Shown in pieces: positions 2,224 to 61,516 of a stretch of DNA of 64,000 nt. The notes under the pieces are model-generated. The model was not told where the DNA came from. It saw nothing but the letters and a program-made list of their open reading frames with translations, and made no database searches. Location of the stretch: IMG/VR virus record IMGVR_UViG_3300046791_000665. The stretch is one strand, 5' to 3'. Source of the stretch: an uncultured virus (IMG/VR IMGVR_UViG_3300046791_000665) (Duplodnaviria; Heunggongvirae; Uroviricota; Caudoviricetes). Numbering within the stretch: position 1 is the stretch's first letter; every line of letters starts with the position of its first letter. Both the position numbers and the translations under genes were made by a program.

Positions 2224-3877
2224 GATCGTTCCCTCCATGCGCTCCCCCTCCGTCGAGAGGGAGAGCCGGTGCAAGGAACTGGCAATTGCCCTTATCGGTT
2301 CTCCGACGGTACCTTGGACAAGAACTGCCGCGCCTCTTCGACCAACTCCGCAGGCGGAGGAATGATGCACTCCACCGCGCAGCCATCGACTTCACACTGC
2401 CCGTTTCTGTGCAGTTGAGGCGAGTGCCTGCAAAGGCAATGTCCTGCCAGAATACTCTCGGCGTCCATCGCGCTGTTTATTTGGTCGAACCATTTCATGT
2501 TTCACACCCTTCCAACGGACAATATCGGTTATCGGGTCAGCGACGGGGGTTCTTTGAGTCCGTCGAGGTGTAACAACGCCTCTCGCAACGTGCGGAAGTG
2601 CAGGGCACGCGCAGGTTCGCCGAGTACCTTGTACGCGTCATCCGAGCGCGCGGCGATGTACCAGCCGCGTCCCGCGTCTTCGCTGATCGCGATCTCGAAT
2701 CGGTGCCCGTGCGCGACCACATCGTAGACGCCGCTGTAGCGCTTGCGCACGTCAAGGTAGGCCGAATGGTCCGCCCGTGCGAACTTGTCGCTGAGATTCT
2801 TGCGCTTCATGCGCTGCAGCTGACCGCTTCCGAGGCTCACAAGACACCATCCTTGCACGAGTAGCAGACTTTGGCGTCGAGCGGGAAAAAGTGCGGGCAA
2901 ACTTTGTCGCGGCAACCGGGGCACTCGCGCACGTTGGTGCTGGCGACACCGCCACGTGTACGGGCCTTCCGCGCGCACCGCTCGCATACACCCTCCAGAC
3001 TCCATCCGAGTTTCGCAAGGGCCTTGTCGGTGCGCTTGTCGCACGACGCGACCGTATCCTGAGCCCACGTCGTGGGAGTGTTTCGGTGCTTGTGCCCGAG
3101 CTTGCAGCGCATGACGCCGTAGAGCCCCATCGGCTATCGCTTCTCCGACGAGTCGAAGAGGCGGCGCGAACTGAACGAGACCTTGCCGACACCGAACACG
3201 AACTTGATCTTCTTCACCAAGTCTCGCTCGTTGTCGCCGAAGAGCCGTCCGTTCACGGTGTCCACCGCCATGCGGTCCGTGGCGACATCGATGAGTAGAC
3301 GGCCATTCCAGGAACCCGCTTTCACCTTCCTCTGTTTGCCGAAAAGTGCCATTGCTTCCTCCGTCGGTGGATAGGATCGCCTCGTAGAGAACGTCGCAGC
3401 GCCACCTACCTCGCTACGACGCGAGGGTTGAAGCCGTCCCACGACGCGCCGTAGCTGGCGACGGTGCGCTCCGCGTTGCCGGATCGGACGTAGGTCTTCG
3501 CCTCGCTGCGATCCTCCGTATACCACGCGCCATCCCACTGCACGCGGCCGGCGAGGTAGGCCGGGCGACCGTTCAGGGTCGGGATCGTCAACTCGATCAG
3601 GTAGTTTTTCATGTCCGTTCCCTCCGTCGGTGACTTGATAATGACCTAGAAACCCAACCCTGCGCAAAACACGCAGCAGGTCCCATCGATATGCAGCCGG
3701 CGACCACATGACGGACAGGCCCCTTCCGTAATTCTCCCTGCGTTCACATCGCGATGCCAAGCGGAGCAGCGATCGTAATGGTCGCGTTGTTCCTGCGTCT
3801 CGGTACCGCGCTTCGATCCACCATCCATTCGCCGTCGCTTGATTCGCATCGGGTCTCCCGTCGGTGACTTGATAATG

Positions 3878-4129
3878 CTACTTGTCGGTTTTGGCGCGCG
3901 TCGCGGTATAGAGCGCGCGGCGGCCCTCGACCGGGAGATCGCGTTTCGCCACGCAGCGCTTGCGGTCGCAGAGGTAGAAACCGGGGCCGTCGCCGGCACC
4001 ACACACCTCGTCGTCCGTGTAGTAGTTGGTCCCGACCGGCTTCCCGCAGCCGTCGCACGACGCCGACGCCTGATACTTCCCCCGGCGATCCTTGGCGACG
4101 TGTTGGTAGCGCTTGAGTTTGTGTGCCAT
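3878..4129 (-). CDS. small Cys-rich (Zn-binding) protein, probably leaderless
   Basis: MAHKLKRY...CDGCG...LCDRKRC; ATG lies 7 nt after the -10 box. Confidence 0.6.
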   Translation of the reverse strand: MAHKLKRYQHVAKDRRGKYQASASCDGCGKPVGTNYYTDDEVCGAGDGPGFYLCDRKRCVAKRDLPVEGRRALYTATRAKTDK

Positions 4130-4136
4130 GAGAAAC

Positions 4137-4165
4137 AGTCTAGCTCCTGCCGTGCTTTCTGTCAA
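4137..4165 (-). promoter_or_regulatory. sigma70-type promoter TTGACA-17-TAGACT
   Basis: Minus strand TTGACAgaaagcacggcaggagcTAGACT. Confidence 0.8.
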
Positions 4166-4216
4166 CGAAAAAACATGAACTAAGAACTGAATGATTACGC
4201 ACACTTAGCCGCCAGC

Positions 4217-4366
4217 CTACTTTTCGGCTTGGATGTCCAGCGTGACTCGCATCCAGTCCGCGAGCGACCGTCGATCACGCGCCGCCGCCCGACTCCACCG
4301 CGCGACCTGCGCCGCGTCGGCGCGTAGTTGATAGACCTTGTCCATCGGTGCTTTTTTCTTCGGCAT
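4217..4366 (-). CDS. ribbon-helix-helix-like DNA-binding protein (49 aa, not in ORF track)
   Basis: MPKKKAPMDKVYQLRADAAQVARWSRAAARDRRSLADWMRVTLDIQAEK fits the RHH pattern. Confidence 0.6.
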   Translation of the reverse strand: MPKKKAPMDKVYQLRADAAQVARWSRAAARDRRSLADWMRVTLDIQAEK

Positions 4367-4412
4367 CGAAGGAATTGTGTACTACGGGCGTAGTGCAGGT
4401 GTCAAGGAATGC

Positions 4413-5105
4413 TTACGTGAGGCTGGCGTACTGGTCGACGAGCGCGGCCACGTCCGCCGCGCTGCGAGAGAAGCTCCACGCCGGAGTCGGCGCCGAGCGG
4501 AGGAAGATGCGAACGATGACCCCCTTCTCGACGCCGCCGTTTCGCGGCGACGTGTTCTTGAACTTGAGCGCCGCGCCGCACGCGATCGAGACCTCCCCCA
4601 GACGCTTGCGCGGGCCGATGTCGCCGACCACGCACTGCACGCTCTCCCCCGTGTCCCGATCCGCCACCAGCGCCGCGTCGCCCACCTGCACCCCGAAGAC
4701 CTCGCGCAGCTGCGGCGGCACCGAGATATAGGGGATCACGCGGCTGTCGACGTAGCGCCGGTAGTCGCCGATCGGGTAGTTCTTGTCAACGAGCGCAGTC
4801 GGCGAGACGAGGTAGCTCTTGTAGGGTCCGTCGGTCTGCTTGACCGGCTTGCCGTGCGGATCGGTCACCACACCCGCCCACCCGTGCACCGGATTCTCCG
4901 GATCATCCGTCGTGACGTGGAGCGCGTTGTGTATATCGTCGAGTGGCTTCAGCCCGAGCGCGGCAGCATCGGATCGCAGCGCGAACGCTGTCGGCGCCCC
5001 GTCCGCATCGATCGCGCCCCCGGCCTCGTACTGCACCTCCCACCCGAACGGAGTCGCGACAAGGTTCACTTGGATCCCGCCGATATTGATAATGGAGATA
5101 CTCAC
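4413..5105 (-). CDS. GH75 chitosanase-like glycoside hydrolase (possible lysin)
   Basis: IDADGAP, VDSRVIPYISVP, VGDAALV, VVGDIGP, LGEVSIA motifs. Confidence 0.7.
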   Translation of the reverse strand: MSISIINIGGIQVNLVATPFGWEVQYEAGGAIDADGAPTAFALRSDAAALGLKPLDDIHNALHVTTDDPENPVHGWAGVVTDPHGKPVKQTDGPYKSYLVSPTALVDKNYPIGDYRRYVDSRVIPYISVPPQLREVFGVQVGDAALVADRDTGESVQCVVGDIGPRKRLGEVSIACGAALKFKNTSPRNGGVEKGVIVRIFLRSAPTPAWSFSRSAADVAALVDQYASLT

Positions 5106-6149: not shown

Positions 6150-7784
6150 TCACATAAGATCAAACGCTCGCCGCCACGCCGTCCTCATCATCTTCGTGAA
6201 CACTCCTCGATCCCAAGCCCCGCGCGCCGCACCTTCCCCAACGCTGCTGCACCACTTCCCCCAGGGCACGAAGAGCCCCCGCTTCGTCTTCTCGTCGACG
6301 ATCGCGGAGGGCACGCCGAGCCGTCGCGCGACCTCGCGCAGCACCGCCTTCGACTCCCGCTCGTTGATCTTCCACCTCGTCGGCATCCGGGCCCCGAGTT
6401 CGATCAGGCGGTGGTCGAGAAACGGCGAGCGATTCTCCATCCCGAACGCCGCCGCCATGCGATCGGCCATGCGCAGGAGCACCTGCATGGTCGTGTAGAA
6501 GTCGACGCGCATCATCGCCGCAGGAAGATCGCAGCACGTCCCCGCAAAGCGCTGCGCGATGCTCCTCGCGTGGTCGAGCGTCGCCTCGCCGCCGCGATTC
6601 AGCATCCTGGCCAGGATCTCGTCGGACTTCCCGAACATGGAGCGGTAGAGCGCCCCGTACGCCGAGAGGTTCTCATCTTCGATCGCCTGATCGAGCCACC
6701 ACAAAATTCGATAGCGCGAGTACCCTCCAAAAAGCTCGTCCGCGCCCTCACCCGAGAGCACGACGACCGCTCCGTCCTCGGCGATCTTCTGGTCCATGAA
6801 CCACTGGCACACAGCCGTCCACGTCGCCGGAGTATCGAGGTGGTAGGCCACCTTCGACAGCACGCGGTCGAGGTCGGCGAAGCCGAACGTGATCGCTGCA
6901 GGCTCGCGCCCCTGCGCCGCCGCCCGCGCGAGCGCGAGGTTGTCAACGCCGTCTTCTGGAAACGTCGCCGTGTAGAGCCTGTCGCTCTTCGCGACCGCCT
7001 GGATGATGGCCGAATCGAGCCCGCCCGAGATCTGCACCGCTACCGGGACTTCGGTCACCGCGCGGAGGCGGATCGAATCGACGAGAAGTGACTCCGTCTG
7101 CTCTATCGCCTCATCCCACGACATTCCCTCGTCGATGTCCGTCGGGAGACTCCACCACCTCGCTGGCTGCGGTGCTCCGAGGGTCGCCGTGCCCGCAAAC
7201 AAAATGTACTCGCCCGGCCCGAGGCAGCGAACGCCTCGGAACGGCGTCGTCTCTAGGCAGTCGAATTCCAGCGCTTCAAGCTCAGCGCAGGGCGCCTCCT
7301 CGAGCTTCACCGGCAGGGCCTTGATCTCCGAGGCGAACGCGATCCCGCTGCCGAGTGGAGCGTAGTAGAGAGGCTTCTCGCCCGCGCGATCGCGCGCGAG
7401 CAGGACGACGCCCTTCAGTGTGTCGACTAAGACGAGCCCGAACATCCCGTTCAGTCGCTGGAGCACGCCGAGCCCCCACCGCCGCCACCCGCGCGCCACG
7501 ACCTCGGCGTCGCACTCCGTCGCCCACGGAAGTCCATCGGAGAGTTCGGCCCGCAGCGCGCGCCAGTTGTAGACCTCACCGTTGAAGGCGAGGACGACCC
7601 CGCAGGAAGCGCGGAAGTCGAACGGCACCGGGATCGCCGTTCTATCGACGATCGACAACCTTGCCATCTCGAGCGAGACGTGCGCCCAGGAGAGATCCTC
7701 CGACAACCCTCCAGTGCCGTCAGGACCGCGATGCGAGAGCATCCTGCCGGAACGCGGCGTGAGCGAACCGACAAACCCGCACAT
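6150..7784 (-). CDS. asnB: asparagine synthase (glutamine-hydrolysing)-like amidotransferase
   Basis: N-terminal MCG, HRGPDG, FNGEVYN, RDRAGEKPLYY, SGGLDS, SGEGADELFGGY, RSPFLD. Confidence 0.92.
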   Translation of the reverse strand: MCGFVGSLTPRSGRMLSHRGPDGTGGLSEDLSWAHVSLEMARLSIVDRTAIPVPFDFRASCGVVLAFNGEVYNWRALRAELSDGLPWATECDAEVVARGWRRWGLGVLQRLNGMFGLVLVDTLKGVVLLARDRAGEKPLYYAPLGSGIAFASEIKALPVKLEEAPCAELEALEFDCLETTPFRGVRCLGPGEYILFAGTATLGAPQPARWWSLPTDIDEGMSWDEAIEQTESLLVDSIRLRAVTEVPVAVQISGGLDSAIIQAVAKSDRLYTATFPEDGVDNLALARAAAQGREPAAITFGFADLDRVLSKVAYHLDTPATWTAVCQWFMDQKIAEDGAVVVLSGEGADELFGGYSRYRILWWLDQAIEDENLSAYGALYRSMFGKSDEILARMLNRGGEATLDHARSIAQRFAGTCCDLPAAMMRVDFYTTMQVLLRMADRMAAAFGMENRSPFLDHRLIELGARMPTRWKINERESKAVLREVARRLGVPSAIVDEKTKRGLFVPWGKWCSSVGEGAARGAWDRGVFTKMMRTAWRRAFDLM

Positions 7785-12109: not shown

Positions 12110-12725
12110 GGCGTTTCCACACCTCGTCCTGCTGCAGCTGCGCGATGAACTCGTACCCGCTCGCCCTCATGACCTCGCCGAACTGGGGGTCGCCGTAGTT
12201 GTTCTCGACGGTAAGCACGTCGATGCGGAAGCGGTCGAAGTCGAGCGTCTCGAGGATCGCCAGATCGGAGCCGTCCGCGTCGATGGAGCAGTAGTCGATC
12301 TTGTCGAGCCCGTGCTTCTCGAGCAGGCTGCCGAGCGTAACGACCGGGACCTGATAGCGCCGCATCCTTTTCGCCGTGCGCAGCATTCGCGCAGTAAGCC
12401 GATCTCCAAGCTGCCCGGCAAGACCGGAAAACGCCGTGCCATCGACGGTGTCGGCCTCGATGAACTCGGCCTCGCCGAACGCCGGCCCGATCGCCACGTT
12501 CTCGCAGATCGTCGACGCCGCGCGCGCTTCTCGGAGCTTCTGAAACGCACTCGGCTGCGGCTCCACGCAGAGCCCGCGCCAGCCGAGGTTGCGCTCGAAG
12601 AAGAGCGTGTTCGAGAACGTGACGCCATCGTACGCTCCGGCCTCGACGAAGACGCCGCCGCGCATCCTCGAAAAAAATCGCTCGTGGAGGAATTGATCCT
12701 GCCCGACCTGCGAGTGGAACGTCAC
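12102..12725 (-). CDS. FkbM-family methyltransferase
   Basis: SQVGQD, FVEAGAYDGVTFSNT, GLCVEP, IDYCSID. Confidence 0.88.
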   Translation of the reverse strand: MTFHSQVGQDQFLHERFFSRMRGGVFVEAGAYDGVTFSNTLFFERNLGWRGLCVEPQPSAFQKLREARAASTICENVAIGPAFGEAEFIEADTVDGTAFSGLAGQLGDRLTARMLRTAKRMRRYQVPVVTLGSLLEKHGLDKIDYCSIDADGSDLAILETLDFDRFRIDVLTVENNYGDPQFGEVMRASGYEFIAQLQQDEVWKRRG

Positions 12726-13570
12726 GTCGTCTCCTTCGCGGGATTATACCAGTACCAGTACAGGGGGCGATCTCCCGTCGAGACTTCCTTCTTCAAGAGC
12801 GGCCGGAGCCGCATCGAGTAGTCGATGTCCTCGCCGAGCGAGATCGCCTTAAACCCGGCTTGGAGTGCGAGTTCGCGCCTGACCGCATTCAGATGCCCCG
12901 GAAAACGGAAGTGCTTTCCATCTTGCGAGTAGTTATGGCTGCACGCGAGCGACGAGTAGAACGGCTCAGACGCCGCGCCCGCCGTCGTCATCACGCCGCA
13001 GAGGGACGCGCAGTCCGCCGCAGGCTCCGATCGCAGGGCGTCGACCACCCGCACGATGTAGTCGTGACTCACGCCATCGTCATCGTCCACGAACGAGACG
13101 AAGTGCCCCCGCGCGCGCTCGAGCAGCGCCTGCCGCTTTTCACCGATCGTGACACCCTCGCGCGGGTCAACGAGCACTTCCACTTCCCTCGGCTCCTCTT
13201 GCGCGAGGATCTGCGTCCAGAGGTGTTCGAGGAGCCGGTCGAGCATCACGCGCCGCGCCGGCAACGTAGCGATGCAGACAGATAGCCACAGCGGCGGCGA
13301 GTCGAATGCGAGTTGCGCGTGCGGTCGCGAGATCCGCTTCCGCGCTTCATAGATCATCTGGTCAGCGTTCCATAGTGCGTCATTGTGGTCGTAGAGCGCG
13401 TCCCGCGCCGCAACACCCCAGGCTGGGTGGCGGTGCTCGATGATCACTTCGTCAATATAGACGAGGCGCCCGGCCGCGCGCAGAACTTCCGTCTGCTCTT
13501 GGTCACAAAAAAGGGATTTATATCCTGGGACCGTTCTCGTTCCTGGATAATAGATGTAGTATTTTCGCAT
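12722..13570 (-). CDS. GT2 glycosyltransferase (C-terminal part of split gene)
   Basis: YIYYPG..GYKSLFCDQE, EHRHP, then LSVCIATL..R, FVDDDD, GEDIDY; ATG overlaps the endonuclease stop (TGATG). Confidence 0.8.
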   Translation of the reverse strand: MRKYYIYYPGTRTVPGYKSLFCDQEQTEVLRAAGRLVYIDEVIIEHRHPAWGVAARDALYDHNDALWNADQMIYEARKRISRPHAQLAFDSPPLWLSVCIATLPARRVMLDRLLEHLWTQILAQEEPREVEVLVDPREGVTIGEKRQALLERARGHFVSFVDDDDGVSHDYIVRVVDALRSEPAADCASLCGVMTTAGAASEPFYSSLACSHNYSQDGKHFRFPGHLNAVRRELALQAGFKAISLGEDIDYSMRLRPLLKKEVSTGDRPLYWYWYNPAKETT

Positions 13571-14328
13571 CACACTTTCCACGTTCGACCCATCTTAATG
13601 TGTCCTATTGTTGCCTCGCACACCTGGAACAACGGAGCAATCGAACGTATTGATCTGCCCTGCGTAAGTAGGCTGCGAATCTCTACTACTTGTATCCATG
13701 TTAGTTTCGCCATCCCAGCACCTTCGCCTTTACGCTGCGAAGATTGAAGTGCTCGCGTTTCTGCACTATGACAATAACCGCGATGGCTACGAGAAAAATT
13801 CTCTCGCGCCGCTTTCGTGGCAGGTGCTCGTATATACGGCAAGTTCTTATTAACATTATACTCTGTCCACTGTTTGCCTAGTTTGATCAAACTTATAACA
13901 GCCTGACTAACGCCAAACATCTCCCCGATTTCAACTTGGCGAAATTTTCCAAGCGACAATAGATGACGCACTTCTGCAACTTGATGTTCTTTCAAAGAAC
14001 GCGATTCTGGTTTGGGTCGTCTACAGCCAACAGATCCTTCGCCACCAGCAGTGCAGTTCAGCAGTTTTGCTCCAATAGCACGAAAATACGCAATATAAAA
14101 TATTTCTGCTTCGTCTAGTTCTAATTTAGAAGAACATTCTTCTAAAATTGTAATCTCATACGGCTTTCGCCTATACTTCTCAATCCATTTTGAGATCGGC
14201 AACTGTGGCCACGTCTCCAAATGTGAAGGTTTACTATGAGATTTCGGTCTAGACATTCCAACAGACGATTGTCCGATATACACAGAAGAAGATTCTCTGC
14301 GGTGCAGTATGTAAACAAACCGCTTCAT
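13570..14328 (-). CDS. GIY-YIG homing endonuclease with NUMOD-like/HTH DNA-binding modules
   Basis: FVYIL...VYIGQS, ILEEC, EIFYI, LNCTAGGEG, HSAETRALQS; markedly AT-richer than flanks. Confidence 0.88.
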   Translation of the reverse strand: MKRFVYILHRRESSSVYIGQSSVGMSRPKSHSKPSHLETWPQLPISKWIEKYRRKPYEITILEECSSKLELDEAEIFYIAYFRAIGAKLLNCTAGGEGSVGCRRPKPESRSLKEHQVAEVRHLLSLGKFRQVEIGEMFGVSQAVISLIKLGKQWTEYNVNKNLPYIRAPATKAARENFSRSHRGYCHSAETRALQSSQRKGEGAGMAKLTWIQVVEIRSLLTQGRSIRSIAPLFQVCEATIGHIKMGRTWKV

Positions 14329-17078: not shown

Positions 17079-17975
17079 CTACGTCGCGACCTCGAGCGCT
17101 GCCTTCACTTCGTCCGCCTGACTGATCTTTTCGAACGCGTGGAAGCCGCGCGCCGCCGTCACTCGGCGAAGCCCGTCGTCGCGGAGCAGGTTCGCGCACG
17201 CAGCGCCAATCTGATCGTAGGGCACCAGCGCGGTCGCTCCGGCAGCAAACGTCTCGAGCGCGGCGTCGCTGCCGCCTCCCTCCGAGACCACGCACTTGCG
17301 ATTCGCGAGGAGGAGCGAGCAGCGGAAGATCTCCCAGATCGGACTCGGGTAGAAGTGCACGTTCAGCACGATCTTCGCCCGCGCGATCCAGCGATCCCGC
17401 TCCTCACCGTAGACGCCGGAGAGGACGTGCACCCGAATTCGCCGCCGCGCCACATCCTCGATCGCCTGCCTGCGCCGATCGTTCGGATTCGTCACGTCGA
17501 TCGACCCGCAGAAAAGCACGTCGAGATCCTCGCGCTCTGCCGGCGCGATGCTCGAGAGCCCGGGCCAGTAACCGATGCGGCAGAGCAACGCGCGGTCTAC
17601 GCCGAGCGACTTCAGTCGCGCGATGTTCGACTCGCTGTAATCCCACACCGCGTGCTGGCGGAGGCGCGTCAAATAGGGTGACTGCCTCCACGCCTCGCCG
17701 AGAAGCCCGTCGACCTGCACCTGTTCGGCGTTGTAGAGGATCGAATCTTCCGGCAACACCACGTCCTCAGGAAGCCGATGCGCGTTGAACGCGATGATCC
17801 TGCGGTTGCTGCTCACCTCGTGGGCTGCGGCGATGACCTCGCTCGCCATCCCCGGCACGAACACCACGTCGTGCCCGAGCCTCTTCAGAGAATCGGCGAC
17901 GCCCGCCGCAGCCTCCCGAAGCCCCTGCCAGTGCACGTCCCCCGGCGGCGCGTAGATCCAGACGGCGAACTTCAT
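17079..17975 (-). CDS. GT-B type glycosyltransferase-like protein
   Basis: DVLFCGS, AKIVLNVHFY, CVVSE. Confidence 0.7.
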   Translation of the reverse strand: MKFAVWIYAPPGDVHWQGLREAAAGVADSLKRLGHDVVFVPGMASEVIAAAHEVSSNRRIIAFNAHRLPEDVVLPEDSILYNAEQVQVDGLLGEAWRQSPYLTRLRQHAVWDYSESNIARLKSLGVDRALLCRIGYWPGLSSIAPAEREDLDVLFCGSIDVTNPNDRRRQAIEDVARRRIRVHVLSGVYGEERDRWIARAKIVLNVHFYPSPIWEIFRCSLLLANRKCVVSEGGGSDAALETFAAGATALVPYDQIGAACANLLRDDGLRRVTAARGFHAFEKISQADEVKAALEVAT

Positions 17976-19165
17976 GCGGACTCCCCAACTGCCGCCTCGT
18001 CGATGGCCTGGAACATCGCTGGAAAACCACCCGCTTCAAGCCCATACCGGATGTGCTCGCGCATTCGTTCCGCATAGTCCGGGTCTGCGGCGGCGATCTG
18101 CTTCGCCGCAACCGCTGCGATCTGGTGCGCGCGCCAGCAGCAGGAGAGATCGACGGGCGAGGTGCTCACGGCGTTCGCCGCCTCGGACGCCACCGTCGCC
18201 GCGTGGTGGGCCAGATCATAGACCTTTCGAACGGGCACGTTCGGGACCTTGGTCGCGATCTCCGCGCGGAGGAGTGCCGTCTCCGCGCGCTTCGGGTCCT
18301 GCGCGCACAATTCGTCGGCGATCGCGAAGAGTTGCTCCGCCGTATAGTCGCCGGACACCCGCATCGCGTCGAGCCGCCGCATCTCCACGTAGCCGCGCTC
18401 GTCCGCCGTCTCGATCGGCAAGAGGAGCCGCCGCGTGTACAACTCGATGGACTTCCGCGCGTACTCGACAAGCTCGTCCCCCTCCATCAGCGAGAGAAAT
18501 CTGTCGTAGCTCTGGGCGAGGAAGATGAGCGAGCGCGCGTCGGTCGGATCGGACAGGACCGCCGCCTCGAGCAGCGGGATGTGCGTCTCCCAGATGTTGT
18601 TCAGGCGCCGCTCGGGATCGGCGACCCGGTGATCGATCCAGGCATCGGGCACCGCGGCGGACGGGGCCTTCGGATCGACGCGGTTGAAGGGTACCTCGTG
18701 CACCACGCCCTCGTAGCGCCACGCGCTGCCGGTGCGCAGAACGATGGGACGGTAGAGCGACACGCCGTCGATCATCACCTTGACGAAGTGGCAATCGACG
18801 TCGGAGTCGCGGTGCTTCTCCAGGTGATCGCGGAGGGCGGCACCGTCGCGGAGATACTCGTCGCCGGAGAGCATCAATTGAAATACGGCGAGTTCTCCCT
18901 GCTCCGGGGGGCGACCAAAATACGTCGTTGACCAATCACGGCGCAGTACTTCATTTCTTGCCGTAGCAAAATCGATGAATGCCCCTTTACAGAGACCGCC
19001 CGGCACATCCCTCATCACCTCTTCCACGATGTCTTGAGTGCCATCGGTGGATCCGGTGTCCAAAATCGTCCACCGGTCAATCCAAGGACGCACCGCCTCG
19101 AGCACCTCTCGGATGCTCGAGGCTTCGTCCTTCAAGATCATGCAGAGCGACAGCAGCGGCTTCAC
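17972..19165 (-). CDS. GT2 glycosyltransferase with TPR-like C-terminus
   Basis: LSLCMILKDE, LDTGSTDGT, DFATARN, YEGVVHE, FLAQSY. Confidence 0.88.
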   Translation of the reverse strand: MKPLLSLCMILKDEASSIREVLEAVRPWIDRWTILDTGSTDGTQDIVEEVMRDVPGGLCKGAFIDFATARNEVLRRDWSTTYFGRPPEQGELAVFQLMLSGDEYLRDGAALRDHLEKHRDSDVDCHFVKVMIDGVSLYRPIVLRTGSAWRYEGVVHEVPFNRVDPKAPSAAVPDAWIDHRVADPERRLNNIWETHIPLLEAAVLSDPTDARSLIFLAQSYDRFLSLMEGDELVEYARKSIELYTRRLLLPIETADERGYVEMRRLDAMRVSGDYTAEQLFAIADELCAQDPKRAETALLRAEIATKVPNVPVRKVYDLAHHAATVASEAANAVSTSPVDLSCCWRAHQIAAVAAKQIAAADPDYAERMREHIRYGLEAGGFPAMFQAIDEAAVGESA

Positions 19166-19479
19166 GGCGACTTTCCCTCCTGATGCAGCCGATCGATCTC
19201 CTCGATGGTGATCGGCGGCAGAGACGGCTCTTCGTCAGCCTTCGGCACGCGAGTCTTCTTCTCCGCGCAGAGCCGCGACACTTCATCGACGAGCAGGAGC
19301 CCGCGGCGCGCAGCCTCGATTACGTCCTCGTCCACGATGAAGTGCTGGTCGCGGATCTTCGCGGCGAGCATCCGCGACGCCGTCTCGCACGCAAACTGGA
19401 TGCGGCTCGCCTGGAGCGCGGTGGACGCCATCGCGCCCAGGTTCTCCATCATGTGCCCGAGATCGGTGCCGTCGCTCAT
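19162..19479 (-). CDS. hypothetical protein
   Basis: Coupled ORF. Confidence 0.55.
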   Translation of the reverse strand: MSDGTDLGHMMENLGAMASTALQASRIQFACETASRMLAAKIRDQHFIVDEDVIEAARRGLLLVDEVSRLCAEKKTRVPKADEEPSLPPITIEEIDRLHQEGKSP

Positions 19480-26657: not shown

Positions 26658-27641
26658 TTGCACGATCACATGAGCACCGCCACCGGACTTTCTAAGAATA
26701 CCCCGTTCAAAGCGGAGATGGACACGCCGCCGAAGCGTCTAGCGCGGTTGGCAGTATACTCCGAGGTCCGTCGTCAGATACTGCTGCACTACAAGAACCC
26801 CGACCCACGTGCCCCTGCCCGATACATCGAGCGCGACGGAAAGCTCCCGTTCGATACACGAGTTTTGCTCTTTCCCGGACGACTCCCAAGTCACGAGATC
26901 GGCCTCGCGAAACACCTTCTCAACGCCTACGTAATCGCCGTCGACACCGATCAGCAAGCCGTCGACGCTGCTCGAGAGAGCGGCGCCGATCACGCCCAGT
27001 TACTCGATCTGAGCGATCTCAAGATACGTCTGCGGCGAAAGTATCCAGGAGACACGAGTCCCATCATCGATGCATTCGACTTCGTGAACATGGACACCTG
27101 CGGGCTCGTGACAACCGACGGCGTCAGCGAAGCGTTCGAGCGCGCCTGTAAGATCGGAGTCTTCGTCGCCACATGGTTCTCCTTTGGCCATGAGATGAAA
27201 CTCTCGTGGGTCCATGAAAGAGCGCTGCTGAGGCTGAAGCAAGACCCGGCGATGGAACGACGATTTCAAGACATCCCATCGACCATCAAGTGTCGGCTCC
27301 TCTTCGCGCGCGATCAGGCCAATCTGTCCGAGCGTCGTCAGGATACTGGTCTCGTAGATCATGTTCTCAACTTCCACATCGTAAAGATCTGGTCGTACAG
27401 GAGCAACGCGATGCCGATGTTCGTCGTCCTGTGGGCTGACGGGCAGTACGTGCACCTAGCAGACGATTACGTGATCCCGTTCGAGAGGATCTCTGCCGAC
27501 GACTACAGATCCCTCGTCATGCGCGCAGTCGACGCCGAGTCATCCAACAGAGCCGTGCTACTCTACGGCTGCTCCAAGGCACAGGTAGCTGCGTGGAGGG
27601 CTGTCAGAACTACTCAGACCAAGAAGAGGATCGGACCATGA
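26658..27641 (+). CDS. hypothetical protein (possible degenerate Rossmann/methyltransferase fold)
   Basis: VIAVDTD, FDFVNMDTCG; coupled to the helicase gene. Confidence 0.5.
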   Translation: MHDHMSTATGLSKNTPFKAEMDTPPKRLARLAVYSEVRRQILLHYKNPDPRAPARYIERDGKLPFDTRVLLFPGRLPSHEIGLAKHLLNAYVIAVDTDQQAVDAARESGADHAQLLDLSDLKIRLRRKYPGDTSPIIDAFDFVNMDTCGLVTTDGVSEAFERACKIGVFVATWFSFGHEMKLSWVHERALLRLKQDPAMERRFQDIPSTIKCRLLFARDQANLSERRQDTGLVDHVLNFHIVKIWSYRSNAMPMFVVLWADGQYVHLADDYVIPFERISADDYRSLVMRAVDAESSNRAVLLYGCSKAQVAAWRAVRTTQTKKRIGP

Positions 27642-30448
27642 AGACACCCCGGGCTCTACCGGCCCGAACAAGCGGTTACCGTACTGCTGCGTTGGAGCCT
27701 CCTCAACCGCACCAGAATGACGCACGCCACGCCGTACTCGCCAAGCTCAGTAAGTGCGACCGCGCGCAGTGCATCATGCCTTGCGGCACCGGCAAGACCT
27801 ACGTCTCGCTCCTCGTCGCACAGGACGGCAAGCACAAAACGGTCGTCGTCTTCGTCCCATCGCTGGCCCTCGTTCGTCAGGTACTCGCCGAGTACCGCGC
27901 GCGCTCTTCGTGGAAGCGGTGGAGTGCGATCGCCGTCTGCTCCGACCCATCTGTTGTTGATGATGGGCTCTACATAGCTCCAGATGAAGTCGGCTGCGTC
28001 GTCACGACCGATTCGAACATCATCAAGACGTTCCTGAGTCAGGACGGTGTACGCGTCGTCTTCTGCACTTACCAGTCGGCGAGTCTCCTCAATGGACTGA
28101 GATTAGAACTCGGGATCTTCGACGAGGCGCACCGTACCGCCGGACGCCAGGGCAAAGCATTTGCCTTCGCGCTCTCCGACAAGAACGTGCAAATCAAGAA
28201 GCGTTTGTTCATGACGGCAACGCCGCGTCATGCAAGAGCGACCGATGACGGCGAAGTGCCTGTATTCTCGATGGACGACGAGAAGCTATATGGGTCAGTC
28301 GCCTACAGGCTTGACTTCCGTAAAGCGATCGATCTCGGGCTCATCTGCGACTACGAGATCATCATCTGTCCTCTGATCGAGGACGTGAACACTGATGGGG
28401 AAAAGGCTGCGCAGGTTGCCCTCCGCAAGGCCATGGTCAACTACGGCGCAAGACGAGCGTTCACGTTCCATAGCACCGTCGAACGCGCTAGGAGCTTCGC
28501 AGAAGATCGCCACGGCGCCATATACGACTACCGTAAGTTCCACATCAACGGCGCGATGTCGACATCTCAACGCGAACCTATGCTATCGCAGATGGTTGCG
28601 CATGGAGGTATCGTCACCAACGTTCGCTGTCTTTCCGAAGGGGTCGACTTCCCGGCTGTCGACGTAGTCGCCTTCATCGACCCGAAACGAAGTGTGATTG
28701 ACATCGTACAGGCAATCGGACGATGTCTACGCAAGGATAGGAACAACGAAAAGAAGAAGAGCTACATCCTCGTTCCTATCTATATACCTAGAAAACTGAC
28801 CGAAGAAGAGTCGATACGAAAAAGCAAATTCGGTCCACTCTACGACGTGCTTCAGGCCATACGAGAACAGGACAAGGTACTTGAGGCTGATCTGAGGCAA
28901 GCGTCCGAACGAGCGATGGTTACGGGTGATACCGGCAATATTGATCGTATCTCGGTCCTTGGCTACAGCGAAGAGACCCTCGACGTCTTGCAGCGCGCAA
29001 TTACGGTACGACTAGTAAAAATTGTATCAGGAATTAAAGCGGCAGACATTAAGAAACAGTTGTTGTTGAAGATGGCGCATCGCGGAGCGTCGAGACCGCA
29101 TTGGAATACTAGAATCGGAATAGCGCTGTCCAGCTACGTAAGCGCTGTGCGAGACTCCTACGACATCTATTTTGATCAAAAAATTCGACGACTAGCGCCA
29201 AACTGGTTCACTAGCAGCGCAGATCTAAACAAGAAGATCTTATTAAAAATGGCGCGTCGCGGTGATTCGAGACCGAATAGTAAGACCAGGATCGGAAATG
29301 CGCTAGTCCATTATACGAATAGACCTACTGACGCTGCCTTTGATCAAGAAATTCGACGACTCGCACCACAATGGTTTGTCAACACCACTAACGAAAACAA
29401 GAAAATACTGTTTAGCGTGGCACACGGTAGACGTCCAAAGCCGCACTATAAAACTAAACTCGGAATAGCACTTAGAGTGTATACAACACCCGGTGGATCA
29501 TTCGACAAATTTTTCAATAAAAAAATTAGACATCTTGCACCGCACTGGTTCACTAGCAGCGCAGATCGAAACAAGAAGATCTTGTTAGAAATGGCACGAC
29601 GCAGTGCCTCGAGACCGTTGAGTAATACCAAAATCGGAAATGTGCTACTCAAGTATACAGGCAGTAAGTTTAAGCTTTCCGGCACTGGCTTTGACCAAGA
29701 GATTCGACGACTCGCACCACAGTGGTTTATCGATACTGTCGACGAGAACAAGAACATCTTACTGGAGATGGCACGACGCGGTAATGCGAGACCGAAAGAA
29801 AGAACCGAATTAGGATCAAAATTACAAAGATACTCAAGTCCGAATAGCCGTTCTTATGACGACGCTTTCGACGAAGAAGTTCGACACCTTGCACCGCACT
29901 GGTTCATTAACAGCGCAGATCAAAACAAGAAGATCTTATTGGAGATGGCACGTCGGGGAGAGCCAAAACCTCTAGGCAGAAAAAACAAAGCATCAGCGCT
30001 TAACGACTACACTTCTGAAACGAGATCATTCGACACAGTTTTCAATCGAAAAATTCGACGTATTGCACCGCACTGGTTCATTAACAGCGCAGATCAAAAC
30101 AAGAAGATCTTATTGGAGATGGCACGTCGGGGAGAGCCAAAACCTCTAGGCAGAAAAAACAAAACAGCATCGGCTCTTAGAGACTACACTTCTGAAACGA
30201 GATCATTCGACACAGTTTTCAATCGAAAAATTCGACGTATTACACCGCACTGGTTCATTAACAGCGTCGATCAAAACAAGAAAATCTTATTGGATATGGC
30301 ACGTCGGGGAGATCCAAAGCCGTATTATACGACCAAAATCGGAAACGCACTAAAGCGCTATATAAACAACAATAAAAGCAGCACTTACAGCTACGACGCG
30401 ATTTTTAGGCAAAAAATCCTACGACTCGCGCCTCATTGGTTGAAATAG
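27638..30448 (+). CDS. SF2 DEAD/DEAH-box helicase with 8 C-terminal ~58-aa repeats
   Basis: PCGTGKT, DEAH, TATPR, LSEGVD, QAIGRCLR. Confidence 0.9.
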   Translation: MKTPRALPARTSGYRTAALEPPQPHQNDARHAVLAKLSKCDRAQCIMPCGTGKTYVSLLVAQDGKHKTVVVFVPSLALVRQVLAEYRARSSWKRWSAIAVCSDPSVVDDGLYIAPDEVGCVVTTDSNIIKTFLSQDGVRVVFCTYQSASLLNGLRLELGIFDEAHRTAGRQGKAFAFALSDKNVQIKKRLFMTATPRHARATDDGEVPVFSMDDEKLYGSVAYRLDFRKAIDLGLICDYEIIICPLIEDVNTDGEKAAQVALRKAMVNYGARRAFTFHSTVERARSFAEDRHGAIYDYRKFHINGAMSTSQREPMLSQMVAHGGIVTNVRCLSEGVDFPAVDVVAFIDPKRSVIDIVQAIGRCLRKDRNNEKKKSYILVPIYIPRKLTEEESIRKSKFGPLYDVLQAIREQDKVLEADLRQASERAMVTGDTGNIDRISVLGYSEETLDVLQRAITVRLVKIVSGIKAADIKKQLLLKMAHRGASRPHWNTRIGIALSSYVSAVRDSYDIYFDQKIRRLAPNWFTSSADLNKKILLKMARRGDSRPNSKTRIGNALVHYTNRPTDAAFDQEIRRLAPQWFVNTTNENKKILFSVAHGRRPKPHYKTKLGIALRVYTTPGGSFDKFFNKKIRHLAPHWFTSSADRNKKILLEMARRSASRPLSNTKIGNVLLKYTGSKFKLSGTGFDQEIRRLAPQWFIDTVDENKNILLEMARRGNARPKERTELGSKLQRYSSPNSRSYDDAFDEEVRHLAPHWFINSADQNKKILLEMARRGEPKPLGRKNKASALNDYTSETRSFDTVFNRKIRRIAPHWFINSADQNKKILLEMARRGEPKPLGRKNKTASALRDYTSETRSFDTVFNRKIRRITPHWFINSVDQNKKILLDMARRGDPKPYYTTKIGNALKRYINNNKSSTYSYDAIFRQKILRLAPHWLK
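29051..30445 (+). repeat. 8 tandem in-frame ~174-bp repeats
   Basis: NKKILLEMARRG..P...T.IG.AL..Y...FD..IRRLAPHWF units; the copies at ~29891 and ~30065 are nearly identical in DNA. Confidence 0.9.
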
Positions 30449-59172: not shown

Positions 59173-59207
59173 TGGAACGTTGCAGTAAACTCCAAGGGAG
59201 GAAAGCG

Positions 59208-60149
59208 ATGAGCGAGATGACGACCGGCAATGGAAGCACCGACAAGAAACCGAAGAAGCCCGCGCCCGAGATCACGAAGGTCACCGTGCAGCCGAAGAAG
59301 GCGACGGACTGGGGCGCGCTCCTCGCCTCCGCCGCCGCCGACCACTGGCGCACCCTCCGCGTGACCGTGCGCGTCCGCGAGAAGCTCCTCGCCGGCAAGC
59401 CCGCGCAACTCGACGCGGCCAAGGCGATGCTGAAGGCCCGCGGCCTCGAAGACAAGATCGAGGCGCTTCGCATCACCGACTCGAACGCGCTCAAGCTCGC
59501 GGCGGCGGCGGCGGGCGTCACCGACGCCCTCGCCACGCCCGAGACCGCCCAGGAGGTCGCGGAGGCGGCCAGCGAGACGGTCGACGAGGGGCTCTGCGAA
59601 TTCCACCGCCGCGAGGGGCGTCCCGGGCTCTGGATGCCGGCCAACAACGTGAAGGCGATGCTGAAGGAGAACTGGAGCGTGCTCGGCTACCGCGTCGAGC
59701 ACCGCGGCTCGCGCGGCGCGATGGCGGAGGGTGTCTTCGTCTTCGGCGTCGACGCGAAGGACAAGGACTGGATCCGGCTCTCCGAGAAGAGCGCGCCCGA
59801 CGCCGTCGAGGTCGCGGTCTCGCACACGACGGGGCCGAAGGGCCCGGTCTCGTCCATCAAGCGCCACGAGTACCTCCTCCGCCCGACCGTCACCTTCGAC
59901 ATCGCGATGGCGGTGCTGGCGGTGCACGAGCCGAAGAAGGCGGACGCGAAGAAGAGCGAGTCCGAGGGCGACGCCGAGACCAAGTCGAAGATCGGCCGCC
60001 TGAAGATCCCGGACGACGCGCTGGCGCGGACGCTGGTCCACGCCGCCGAGCACGGCCTCGGAGCCTGCCGCTCGCAGGGGCACGGGCGCTTCGACATCGT
60101 CTCCGTCGAGGAGACCGGCTCGAAGAGCGAGTCCGAAATCGCGAAGTAG
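59208..60149 (+). CDS. stand-alone Cas7-group/RAMP-like protein
   Basis: N-terminal strand LRVTVRVREKLLAG; LWMPANNVKAMLKE (cf. RAMP IPGSSLKGxLR); C-terminal Gly-rich loop GLGACRSQGHGRF. Confidence 0.75.
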   Translation: MSEMTTGNGSTDKKPKKPAPEITKVTVQPKKATDWGALLASAAADHWRTLRVTVRVREKLLAGKPAQLDAAKAMLKARGLEDKIEALRITDSNALKLAAAAAGVTDALATPETAQEVAEAASETVDEGLCEFHRREGRPGLWMPANNVKAMLKENWSVLGYRVEHRGSRGAMAEGVFVFGVDAKDKDWIRLSEKSAPDAVEVAVSHTTGPKGPVSSIKRHEYLLRPTVTFDIAMAVLAVHEPKKADAKKSESEGDAETKSKIGRLKIPDDALARTLVHAAEHGLGACRSQGHGRFDIVSVEETGSKSESEIAK

Positions 60150-60168
60150 GGGAGCGGCGAACCCCGGG

Positions 60169-60202
60169 CGCCCCGCGCGGCTGCGACAGAGCGCGCGGGG
60201 CG
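60169..60202 (+). promoter_or_regulatory. GC-rich hairpin at the head of the array
   Basis: CGCCCCGCGCG/CGCGCGGGGCG 11-bp stem enclosing a GCGAC; no U-tract. Confidence 0.7.
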
Positions 60203-60224
60203 GGACACGCCAGAGTGACGATCC

Positions 60225-61232
60225 GCGACGGTTCTACCCCATTTGAGCCCTGCCTGAGCAGCGCGACGACCCTCAGCCCGCACTCTCGGAACGACCCGTC
60301 GCGACGCGTCATTCCCGCACTATTCACAGCGACACACCTAGCAGAGTCGGGCGCTGCCTCACCGCCCCGCACCAGAGCGACGCTGCTCTCCAAGCATGGC
60401 CATCTCCAGGCGACGGCCCTACCTAGCTCTCGACCTGTCCTGGACTGAGCGACGAGACGAGTCCGTCGATCGCAATCCGTTGCGACAAGACGATCCAACC
60501 CGTTTCACGTCCAGCCACGGGTCCGTCTCAACGTGACACGTCGAGCATGGTCCAGCCGCCGCGACGAGCGCAGCCAGTCCTGACTCACCTCTCCCGCCGC
60601 CAGCGCGACAGTCCATCGCTATGCTGTCCGGCGCGACGATTCAGCACAGGTCGGGTTCCAGCCCGTACCGGCGCGACGCTTCATCCCAGGACAAGTCGGG
60701 ACTAGTCGGCGCGACGGTTCTTGCCGCGCGAGACCAATAACCGTACCGACCCGCAGCGACGAGCCGTTCCCTCCCTGTCTCACGTCGCTCCACAGCCGCA
60801 GCGACAAGCAAGGACAAACCGATTCCAGTCTCCGCGACATGCCCGCGCATTCGCAAGCCAACGTGACTTTTCATCCCAACTCCGCCCGCAGCCAAGTCCT
60901 CGCGACGTTGCACGTCTATCGAGGCCATTCCCCGTCGGGCCAACGCGACTACCCCACCCGACCTCCCGCGATCCCGATCGCCGCGACTTGTCAAGCCGAC
61001 CCCTGCGCGACCCAGCGCGACATGCCATCGCGATTCAAGATCGCCGCGATCCGCAGCGACATGCCCACCCGTTCCAGCCGCCGCGACGAGCCCGTTCGTA
61101 CCGTACGCGCGCCCCATTCAGTGCGACTATTCTCCCCACACCATCTCATTTCCGTCCGCCGCGACTACCCGTGACGTACCGTTACGGCTCCGCGCGACAT
61201 GCCCAGCCACCACCGATCATAACGACCGCGAC
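60225..61232 (+). repeat. non-coding array of ~27 units GCGAC+(NNNNC)n+NNN; candidate guide-RNA array
   Basis: 28 GYGAC anchors spaced 27-51 nt, mostly 28/33/38/43/48; C at every 5th position. Confidence 0.85.
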
Positions 61233-61267
61233 CGCGCTCCCCCGATCGATCGCTCGAGGAGTAAAAA

Positions 61268-61516
61268 ATGAAATTTAGAGGAGCCCCGATGCCCACCGTC
61301 CACCTCGACCGCCGCCGCGTCAGCGCCGTGCTCGCGCTCCGCGACCTCTCCTTCACCGACCTCGCCCGCCGCGCGCGGGTCACCCCGCAGCACCTGCGCC
61401 TCGTCCTGCGCGGCAGGCGCGGGGCCTCCCCGGACCTCCTCCGCGCCGCCAGGAAGGTGCTCGGGAAGCCGGGCTGGGCGTTCGCCGCCGGGGAGGTGGA
61501 TTCGATCAGCGACTAG
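61268..61516 (+). CDS. XRE-type HTH protein
   Basis: LSFTDLARRARVTPQHLRLVLRGRR. Confidence 0.75.
   Translation: MKFRGAPMPTVHLDRRRVSAVLALRDLSFTDLARRARVTPQHLRLVLRGRRGASPDLLRAARKVLGKPGWAFAAGEVDSISD

Follow-up and report, generated by a model that had tools for sequence, protein, structure and literature searches.

The window analysed here, a 64,000-nt (64-kb) stretch of DNA from an uncultured virus of the Caudoviricetes (IMG/VR record IMGVR_UViG_3300046791_000665), carries on its plus strand a gene for a Cas7-like protein (59208..60149) followed by a dense array of short units (60215..61250), and array positions are given throughout on this strand. We consider it very probable that 59208-61250 is a module of the VIPR (Viral Interference Programmable Repeat) type, that is, a lone Cas7-like Vipr gene together with a guide array of about 29 units; the module is likely to be carried by a large phage-like element.

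The gene at 59208..60149 is recognised by its coding signal and predicted fold. Its open reading frame (ORF) has a third-position GC content of 0.94, the strongest coding signal in the neighbourhood, which marks it as the real frame, and it stops 34 nt before the first GCGAC. The predicted product is a 313-amino-acid RAMP (Cas7-like) protein with a single RRM and a C-terminal glycine-rich loop, HGLGACRSQGHGRF. It has no match in Pfam, PHROG or NCBIfam, and PADLOC returns a weak match of residues 269-308 to a Csm4 model (E 0.0028). A metagenome protein collection holds 212 relatives, none of them with a Pfam domain, and a profile search retrieved 775 cluster representatives at E <= 0.001 with the superfamily signature GLGA[NDSLC]RSQG. 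In an alignment of 22 sequences the C-terminal motif HGxGAxRSQGxGxF, to which we refer as the G-loop, is invariant. The AlphaFold (AF2) model built on that alignment has a predicted local distance difference score (pLDDT) of 69.7 and a predicted template-modelling score (pTM) of 0.63, and its top Foldseek matches are subunits of CRISPR RAMP type, mostly Cas7-like, with a best E of 5e-6. VIA-align gives a best Z of 10.8, with a root-mean-square deviation of 4.8 over 167 residues, and all of its top 30 matches are CRISPR RAMPs; Csm3, type VII Cas7, Cmr4, Csf2 and gRAMP domains are among the structural matches. A long beta-hairpin predicted at residues 199-224 sits at the place expected of the thumb. 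In the model, the 313-residue protein folds as a stand-alone Cas7-type RAMP with a G-loop, and none of cas1, cas2, cas5, cas6, cas10 or nuclease genes was found in the neighbouring genes scanned.

The array downstream of this gene comprises about 29 units of 27-51 nt and is delimited by anchor counts, by shuffle tests and by the occurrence of the same grammar in related loci. The original prediction, made from the letters of this region, had described GCGAC anchors followed by pentamers ending in C and by a 3-nt linker. Its 28 anchors, 26 GCGAC and two GTGAC, are all present, and on recounting, 14 of the 27 spacings between them are indeed of length 5n+8 and seven of length 5n+9, the remaining six being 51, 40, 45, 45, 27 and 40 nt; at p = 0.2, the binomial chance that 14 or more of the 27 spacings fall in the 5n+8 class is 2.3e-4. 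The count of C-ending pentamers was likewise reproduced, with 67 of the 77 pentamers in the 14 clean units ending in C (P = 5e-17 given the regional C frequency of 0.41) and C at position 4 in nine of the ten exceptions; a pyrimidine occupies position 4 in 61 of the 77. The motif of anchor plus linker is real, and it is better parsed as xGC-GAC, two fixed triplets with no variable dinucleotide (NN) between them. A unit then reads GAC-NN-(sYC-NN)k-xGC, which is the GCGAC, pentamers and 3 nt of the earlier description, and contains 5-10 variable dinucleotides. The first clear anchor lies at 60225 and the last at 61228, the final unit decaying by about 61250, and motifs beyond those listed before were found at 60183 and 61007 (GCGAC) and at 60215 (GTGAC). 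GCGAC occurs 28 times in 60150-61270 versus 178 times on the plus strand of the whole window, which amounts to about 25 per kb in the array versus about 2.4 per kb elsewhere in the window, and its reverse complement GTCGC is not enriched in 60150-61270. The base composition of the array strand is asymmetric, with C at 0.40 and G at 0.26.

The periodicity that had been proposed is significant against composition-matched shuffles. Over 60225-61232, compared with 1000 dinucleotide-preserving shuffles, the autocorrelation of C is 1.35 times the expected value at lag 5 (z 7.4) and 1.24 times at lag 10 (z 5.0). Further peaks at lags 13, 18, 23 and 28 (z 3.1, 2.6, 4.8 and 3.9) arise because each unit shifts the phase by +3, and as the phase slips by 3 at every unit, a Fourier analysis of the array shows no global peak at period 5. 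Tandem Repeats Finder reports inside the array just three 10-nt repeats of about two copies each, and no row for the 5-nt rhythm or for units of 28-48 nt. Rfam finds no family in the array, so no hammerhead lies between the units. The units of the array are mutually unrelated, the closest pair of equal length differing at 48% of positions. The original view that the array is no simple satellite and would escape CRISPR finders is supported.

The same grammar accompanies relatives of the gene. Proteins with 38-57% identity are encoded at 39 loci, one from IMG/VR and 38 from metagenomes, and in 27 of these a dense cluster of GCGAC follows the gene on the same strand, either directly or past one small ORF; an inverted array was seen in none of the 39. 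Ten of the 12 loci without an array have less than 500 nt of sequence after the gene, and the other two (L001 and L008) have ample sequence and no downstream array. In 26 arrays with 523 spacings the lengths 23, 28, 33, 38, 43, 48 and 53 predominate, 5n+3 accounting for 309 of the 441 spacings that are 20-60 nt long (binomial P 6e-114). For the well-sampled lengths of 28-43 nt, position 5 of the pentamer is C in 78-95% of distinct units. At position 4 of the related arrays C makes up about 60% and T about 25%, G is favoured at position 3, and positions 1-2 are variable and poor in C; the 3-base linker leans towards N-G-C and the anchor is GCGAC. This grammar is kept across loci that share no array sequence. 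Array size ranges widely, L022 having 56 anchors over 1.8 kb (3171-4999), and L025, L029 and L030 (6872-7809 and 10004-11032) contain two to four arrays each, split by gaps or genes.

No accessory gene is conserved with the module: tblastn of the window ORFs across the loci recovers just the RAMP gene and its shadow frames, and clustering of ORFs from the 39 loci and the window yields no other family in more than three loci. A homologous small ORF of 113 or 126 amino acids stands between the Vipr-like gene and the array in L021 (2956-3297) and L029 (6780-7160), and other small ORFs occupy this place in L031/32 and L035; these are candidate accessory genes.

More distant relatives extend the association to a cultured virus. 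The Microcystis phage Mae-JY09 carries a Vipr-like gene of 27% identity, annotated as hypothetical, and behind it an array in which CGAC punctuates about 12 units, most of them 33 nt long (L040 3736-4252, corresponding to PP395641.1 38460-38976). This array reaches the end of the linear record, which restarts with a same-strand gene at base 1. Besides Mae-JY09, viral carriage is seen in L001 and L052-L071, which are IMG/VR contigs. The 20 loci L052-L071 were retrieved for a distant branch, and in 12 of them, analysed by xCGAC anchors together with Mae-JY09, the grammar holds, with 118 of 275 spacings in the 5n+3 class and C filling position 5 in 91% and position 4 in 78%; L063 favours a spacing of 5n+4. 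A sister branch from IMG/VR (L064 3640-4010, L065, L069 1105-1270 and L070) has G-rich arrays of TG-NNN pentamers on the gene strand, with punctuation of GCCGAG type and different G-loops, GMGSDRG and GMGQERSQ, and it represents a second non-canonical code in the same superfamily. Among 185,579 reference prokaryote genomes the pattern gave 72 matches, none of which was confirmed by tblastn, and the 3-kb region showed no DNA similarity to known phages.

Comparison of close relatives indicates how the arrays change. Such arrays share identical units and differ by insertions, deletions and replacements of whole units; a 43-nt unit of L011 is absent from L010, and multi-unit blocks distinguish L026 from L034. 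The inserted or deleted lengths are not multiples of 3. In 12 pairs of near-identical units from different loci, substitutions number 10 and 9 at pentamer positions 3 and 4, and two each at positions 1, 2 and 5 (chi-square p = 0.009, in a small sample of 12 unit pairs). Because of this pattern we assign NN to positions 1-2 of the pentamer. The sparing of these positions supports the earlier idea that the variable bases carry information, and it fits a scheme in which positions 1-2 would be the bases under selection for specificity and position 5 would be needed for protein binding.

Lone RAMP proteins named Vipr, found mostly in viruses and proviruses, were first described in bioRxiv preprints of 2026, in print since April of that year (10.64898/2026.04.26.720920). 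As reported there, their guides, the vrRNAs, consist of 9-16 YNNGG repeats and a structured 3' tail, the NN dinucleotides read double-stranded DNA with a one-base skip, and the systems silence transcription of rival phages and satellites. Seven VIPR types are distinguished, with array layouts that are staggered, ribozyme-interspersed or single, and alternative repeats NNNGG, YNNNG and NNNNG, all G-written, are listed (10.64898/2026.04.26.720920). Cryo-electron microscopy is reported to place one Vipr protomer on each pentamer repeat, and in the protein of Escherichia phage SUSP1, G1 is read by H17 and D177, G2 by R138 and W178, and Y3 lies in a purine-excluding pocket with R179 (10.64898/2026.04.26.720927). 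A survey with a language model describes 99 period-5 clusters, 21 of them with non-canonical triplets such as GAC/NN and CAC/NN, the non-canonical arrays lying beside Vipr-like folds (10.64898/2026.10.21.760802).

The module of the window shows both defining features of VIPR in the broad sense, a RAMP standing alone and, next to it, non-coding DNA of pentamer repeats. With type II, known from SUSP1 and from a prophage of Pseudomonas fulva, it shares the lone single-RRM RAMP with a G-loop and phage carriage, the non-coding tandem pentamers beside the gene, each made up of a fixed part and a variable dinucleotide, and the presence of several guides per locus that differ between relatives. The details differ. 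The gene strand reads GGY-NN in SUSP1 and NN-s-Y-C in the window; SUSP1 guides have 9-16 repeats and a structured 3' tail of about 40 nt, whereas the units of the window have 5-10 repeats and an 8-nt xGC-GAC junction; and SUSP1 encodes four vrRNAs, compared with about 29 units here and the 56 anchors of L022. The SUSP1 Vipr has 195 amino acids and the G-loop GVGDWRPRFGRF, in contrast to 313 amino acids and GLGACRSQGHGRF for the protein of the window. With the published non-canonical arrays (NNNGG, YNNNG, NNNNG, GAC/NN and CAC/NN) the module has in common a period of 5, a relaxed fixed part and an adjacent Vipr-like fold; the published NNNGG is the reverse complement of the CCNNN of the window, and the published GAC/NN is the start of every unit. 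Staggered VIPR arrays, as far as they are described, overlap by 1 nt and offer no obvious match to units of 5n+8 nt joined by xGC-GAC, nor do the non-canonical clusters of about 10 repeats, in their published description, obviously match the units of the window (10.64898/2026.10.21.760802). The strings GCGAC and GTCGC are absent from the supplement of 10.64898/2026.04.26.720920, and none of the papers listed in our literature search pairs a CGAC-type motif in context with VIPR, vrRNA or Cas7. The clade may still belong to one of the seven published types, such as that of NNNGG or the staggered one, the comparison having been made with the text and legends of those accounts.

The backbones of class 1 CRISPR-Cas complexes, in which Cas7, Csm3 or Cmr4 line the CRISPR RNA (crRNA), share with the module their fold (Z about 10), a protomer per fixed guide step, many different guides, a short constant separator and gain and loss of cassettes. 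The 8-nt constant boundary of the units also has the same length as the 8-nt 5' handle of type I and type III crRNAs. In class 1 systems, however, the step is 6 nt and the repeat 24-40 nt, compared with a step of 5 nt and a constant element of 5-8 nt here. The array has no direct repeats of 24-40 nt, no cas family was found in the neighbouring genes scanned beyond the weak match of the RAMP G-loop to Csm4, and as the "spacers" of the array carry a fixed C every 5 nt, they are not raw captured DNA; the module does not belong to CRISPR-Cas. An undescribed CRISPR-like system with a 5-nt Cas7 register was also considered and was dropped as a claim of novelty, since VIPR had already been published. 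TIGR-Tas resembles the module in having guide arrays of short period that are missed by CRISPR finders, but the 18-nt period and the Nop-domain effector reported for it (10.64898/2026.10.21.760802) are both lacking in the window.

Based on these comparisons we propose the following sequence of events. The array would be transcribed, most likely on the gene strand, and Vipr protomers would bind the RNA one per pentamer, each holding the fixed triplet s-Y-C, with C invariant, and exposing the following two bases NN. At the xGC-GAC junction, where two fixed triplets abut without NN, the register would shift by 3, one filament would end and the next would start, and a unit of 5n+8 nt would in this way form a ribonucleoprotein with n+1 NN steps, 5-10 here. 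The string of NN would read double-stranded DNA of a competitor element or of the host discontinuously and would then silence it. RNA binding by one protomer per repeat, DNA targeting and silencing are taken over from the published work on SUSP1 and P. fulva, and the strand, the C-based code and the role of the junction as a filament boundary are what we infer here. The original prediction that unit length encodes subunit number is the reading to be expected for an array tied to a Cas7-like gene; that one protomer would occupy each pentamer is an analogy with the characterised systems.

The arrangement of genes suggests that the guide is probably carried by the gene strand. The GGY repeats of SUSP1 lie on the same strand as its genes. 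In L052 (array at 2572-2975), L053, L058 and L060 an array of the C type precedes vipr, stopping about 25 nt short of its ribosome-binding site and ATG, and more ORFs of the same strand lie ahead of the array, so that vipr in these loci can hardly be expressed unless the array is transcribed on the gene strand. In L057 the Vipr-like gene is flanked by arrays on either side, and a promoter-like TTGACA-16-TAATCA stands between the upstream array and vipr, indicating that arrangements vary. In the window, L010/11, L015, L024, L030 and L031/32 the array is followed within about 20-80 nt by the start of a same-strand ORF; in L037 this distance is about 70 nt. The array of Mae-JY09 is flanked by same-strand genes only. 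A scan of 27 loci for hairpins followed by a T-run gave no consistent signal; in L021 a gene-strand terminator stands just after the array. In the alignment of the G-loops, the positions of SUSP1 D177 and W178 are occupied by Ala and by Cys, Asn, Ser or Asp across the superfamily, and R179 of the pyrimidine pocket persists as the invariant R288. Loss of D177 and W178 with retention of R179 would agree with a triplet that has a pyrimidine as its invariant base, at position 3.

Several observations weigh against a VIPR module with guides on the gene strand. The similarity in sequence to the characterised Vipr family is weak, and the argument from G-loop residues rests on that alignment: hhalign against the profile of the SUSP1 Vipr family gives E 0.0032 at a probability of 10%, with 126 co-linear columns that extend from helix 1 as far as the G-loop, and against the single SUSP1 Vipr sequence the G-loop alone aligns, with a probability of 0.4%. 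The solved structure of SUSP1 Vipr (36pp, located by sequence) is not among the fold-search matches listed. Unlike type II, in which SUSP1 has vap1, the clade of the window has neither a structured tail nor a conserved partner gene. The label "phage", which is likely for this contig, rests on the IMG/VR relatives and on matches of replication genes. A search for gapped targets of 254 clean units in about 280 kb of locus DNA, on both strands and under 12 rules (three choices of position combined with skips of 0-3), found no excess over controls with shuffled pentamer order. Within the window itself, the best ungapped matches of the 28 units, whole or reduced to their triplets, were no better than those of shuffled units. 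As the published VIPR systems, in the accounts given of them, show no self-targeting either, the lack of targets here is uninformative. Finally, L030 has a strong intrinsic terminator on the gene strand between vipr and the array, and the opposite strand of the arrays reads G (about 90%), purine (about 85%), a weak pyrimidine and then NN, close to GGY/NN and to the published NNNGG.

The last two points favour an alternative in which the system would be the same VIPR and its guides would come from the strand opposite vipr, as 5'-(G-R-y-N-N)k-GTCGC, with a degenerate GGY/NN or NNNGG code and GTCGC as a minimal 3' tail. With a pyrimidine in about 50-65% of third positions, the opposite strand has the canonical order G1-G2-Y3-N-N, the repeat adjoining GTCGC is the most canonical (GGC), and a G-based code would be in keeping with the published alternative repeats. 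Against this, the promoter would need to lie inside vipr in L052, L053, L058 and L060, where vipr would still need read-through of the array; a same-strand gene starts 20-60 nt after the array in at least seven loci; the SUSP1 arrays are co-directional with the genes; and D177, which reads G1 in SUSP1, is Ala, or Ser or Cys, across the superfamily. We regard guides from the opposite strand as a real option, though a rather unlikely one. A role for the array RNA other than that of a guide, as a decoy or sponge, a scaffold or a long regulatory untranslated region that is bound by the Cas7-like protein and titrates, for example, a RAMP complex of the host or of a rival, appears improbable to us. 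Such a role would agree with the targets not found, with the solo vrRNAs that satellites are reported to use as decoys (10.64898/2026.10.15.759431) and with the fact that guides of 5-7 NN steps specify just 10-14 bases. The units of the window array are, however, highly diverse, units turn over as cassettes and NN positions are spared between relatives, all of which looks like a library of specificities and not like a sponge of identical sites.

An element acting at the level of DNA, such as iterons, a partition site or a binding array for the neighbouring helix-turn-helix or replication proteins, is to our mind very improbable. A helix-turn-helix gene does adjoin the array and a primase/helicase-like gene lies about 1.8 kb away, but it is the RAMP gene, and not these neighbours, that is conserved with the array; moreover the signal is strongly strand-asymmetric, its conserved part is just 5 bp with variable content between, and the array points the same way as the RAMP gene in 27 of 27 loci. 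That the array is an artefact of chance or composition, or hides a protein-coding region, is scarcely credible. ORFs of 111-185 amino acids can be drawn across it, yet none of the ORFs of at least 80 amino acids in 60320-61264 shows the high third-position GC that marks real genes here, in agreement with the non-coding nature claimed for it originally, and neither the unit-length indels nor the shuffle and binomial tests, nor the grammar kept where array sequence is not shared, are those of a coding or fortuitous sequence. TRAP-like or Rho-utilisation RNA, primase recognition sites and Chi-like arrays were dropped as candidates, as the linkage to the RAMP explains the array better.

Returning to the VIPR module with guides on the gene strand, the clade may use a mirrored, cytosine-based version of the VIPR code. 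Its gene-strand repeats s-Y-C/NN would then be read by a Vipr G-loop without the two guanine-reading residues, xGC-GAC would serve as the stop and start of filaments, and a long transcript would be divided into dozens of guides, each of 5-10 protomers, with no need of Cas6, ribozyme or structured tail. We put this fuller version forward tentatively, as possible rather than probable.

Between the stop codon of the vipr-like gene and the array lies a GC-rich hairpin (60170..60201, plus strand; stem GCCCCGCGCG / CGCGCGGGGC) of uncertain role. The fold of 60150-60224 has a minimum free energy of -37.2 kcal/mol, which with a z of only -1.05 against 200 shuffles is not significant, and no T-run follows the hairpin. 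A scan of the locus for promoters and terminators found no promoter-like site and one terminator-like site, outside the array. A gene for a small helix-turn-helix protein (61268..61516, plus strand) starts 20-40 nt past the array, an alternative start at 61289 standing behind GGAG. The product matches two Pfam families, HTH_31 (E 5.6e-5) and HTH_3 (E 3.1e-4), neither match reaching the curated cut-off, and no homologue of it was found beside the related loci; it is possibly an accessory DNA-binding protein, or simply the next gene.

The contig that carries the vipr-like protein is 158,943 bases long. The window holds a primase/helicase-like gene and a RecA/KaiC-like ATPase, both with phage families, and many ORFs without any family, and PHROG and Pfam recognised no structural phage genes in it. 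Three minus-strand genes at 6150-7784, 12722-13594 and 17972-19234, one of them asparagine synthase-like (Pfam E 1.7e-52) and two glycosyltransferase-like, resemble a cluster for modification of sugars or of the cell surface on the same element. The GC skew of the window is strongly negative (C 0.339, G 0.287); the coding-like ORFs are mostly on the minus strand, and the Vipr module and its neighbours at about 59200-61500 are on the plus strand. A period-5 signal at 29,000-30,400 was considered as a second array and was rejected, being a protein-coding tandem repeat. Its source is a helicase gene (27638-30448, plus strand; 936 amino acids, ResIII/DEAD and Helicase_C), the C-terminal half of which is a tandem repeat of low GC and about 177 nt (59 amino acids), with 2.4 copies at 94% in 29889-30318 by Tandem Repeats Finder and degenerate copies visible from about 29000.

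The module is thus of a kind already known, published in 2026, and what is of interest in it are the quantised 5n+8 units, the xGC-GAC junction, the very large arrays, the absence of a tail or accessory gene and the possible reading of a cytosine-based code from the gene strand. VIPR is a class of RNA-guided DNA recognition that is months old and of which type II alone has been dissected. The clade described here is large and carries by far the largest arrays seen in the present analysis, with tens of guides per locus, and it appears to use a minimal punctuation in place of a tail or ribozyme and possibly a different base code. As the copy in Mae-JY09 belongs to a cultured phage, these points can be tested at the bench. 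For annotation, the occurrence of xCGAC every 5n+8 nt with C at every fifth base, beside a protein with GxGAxRSQG, would find loci that are missed by repeat and CRISPR finders. Should this punctuation and code indeed apply, Vipr proteins could be retunable to other fixed triplets, and the arrays would show how a filament-forming RAMP measures the length of its guide from the RNA sequence alone and would allow many guides to be expressed compactly from a single transcript. If the cytosine code holds, the clade would represent a multiplexed, CRISPR-array-like stage in the evolution of RAMPs, with an 8-nt boundary like the 5' handle of crRNAs.

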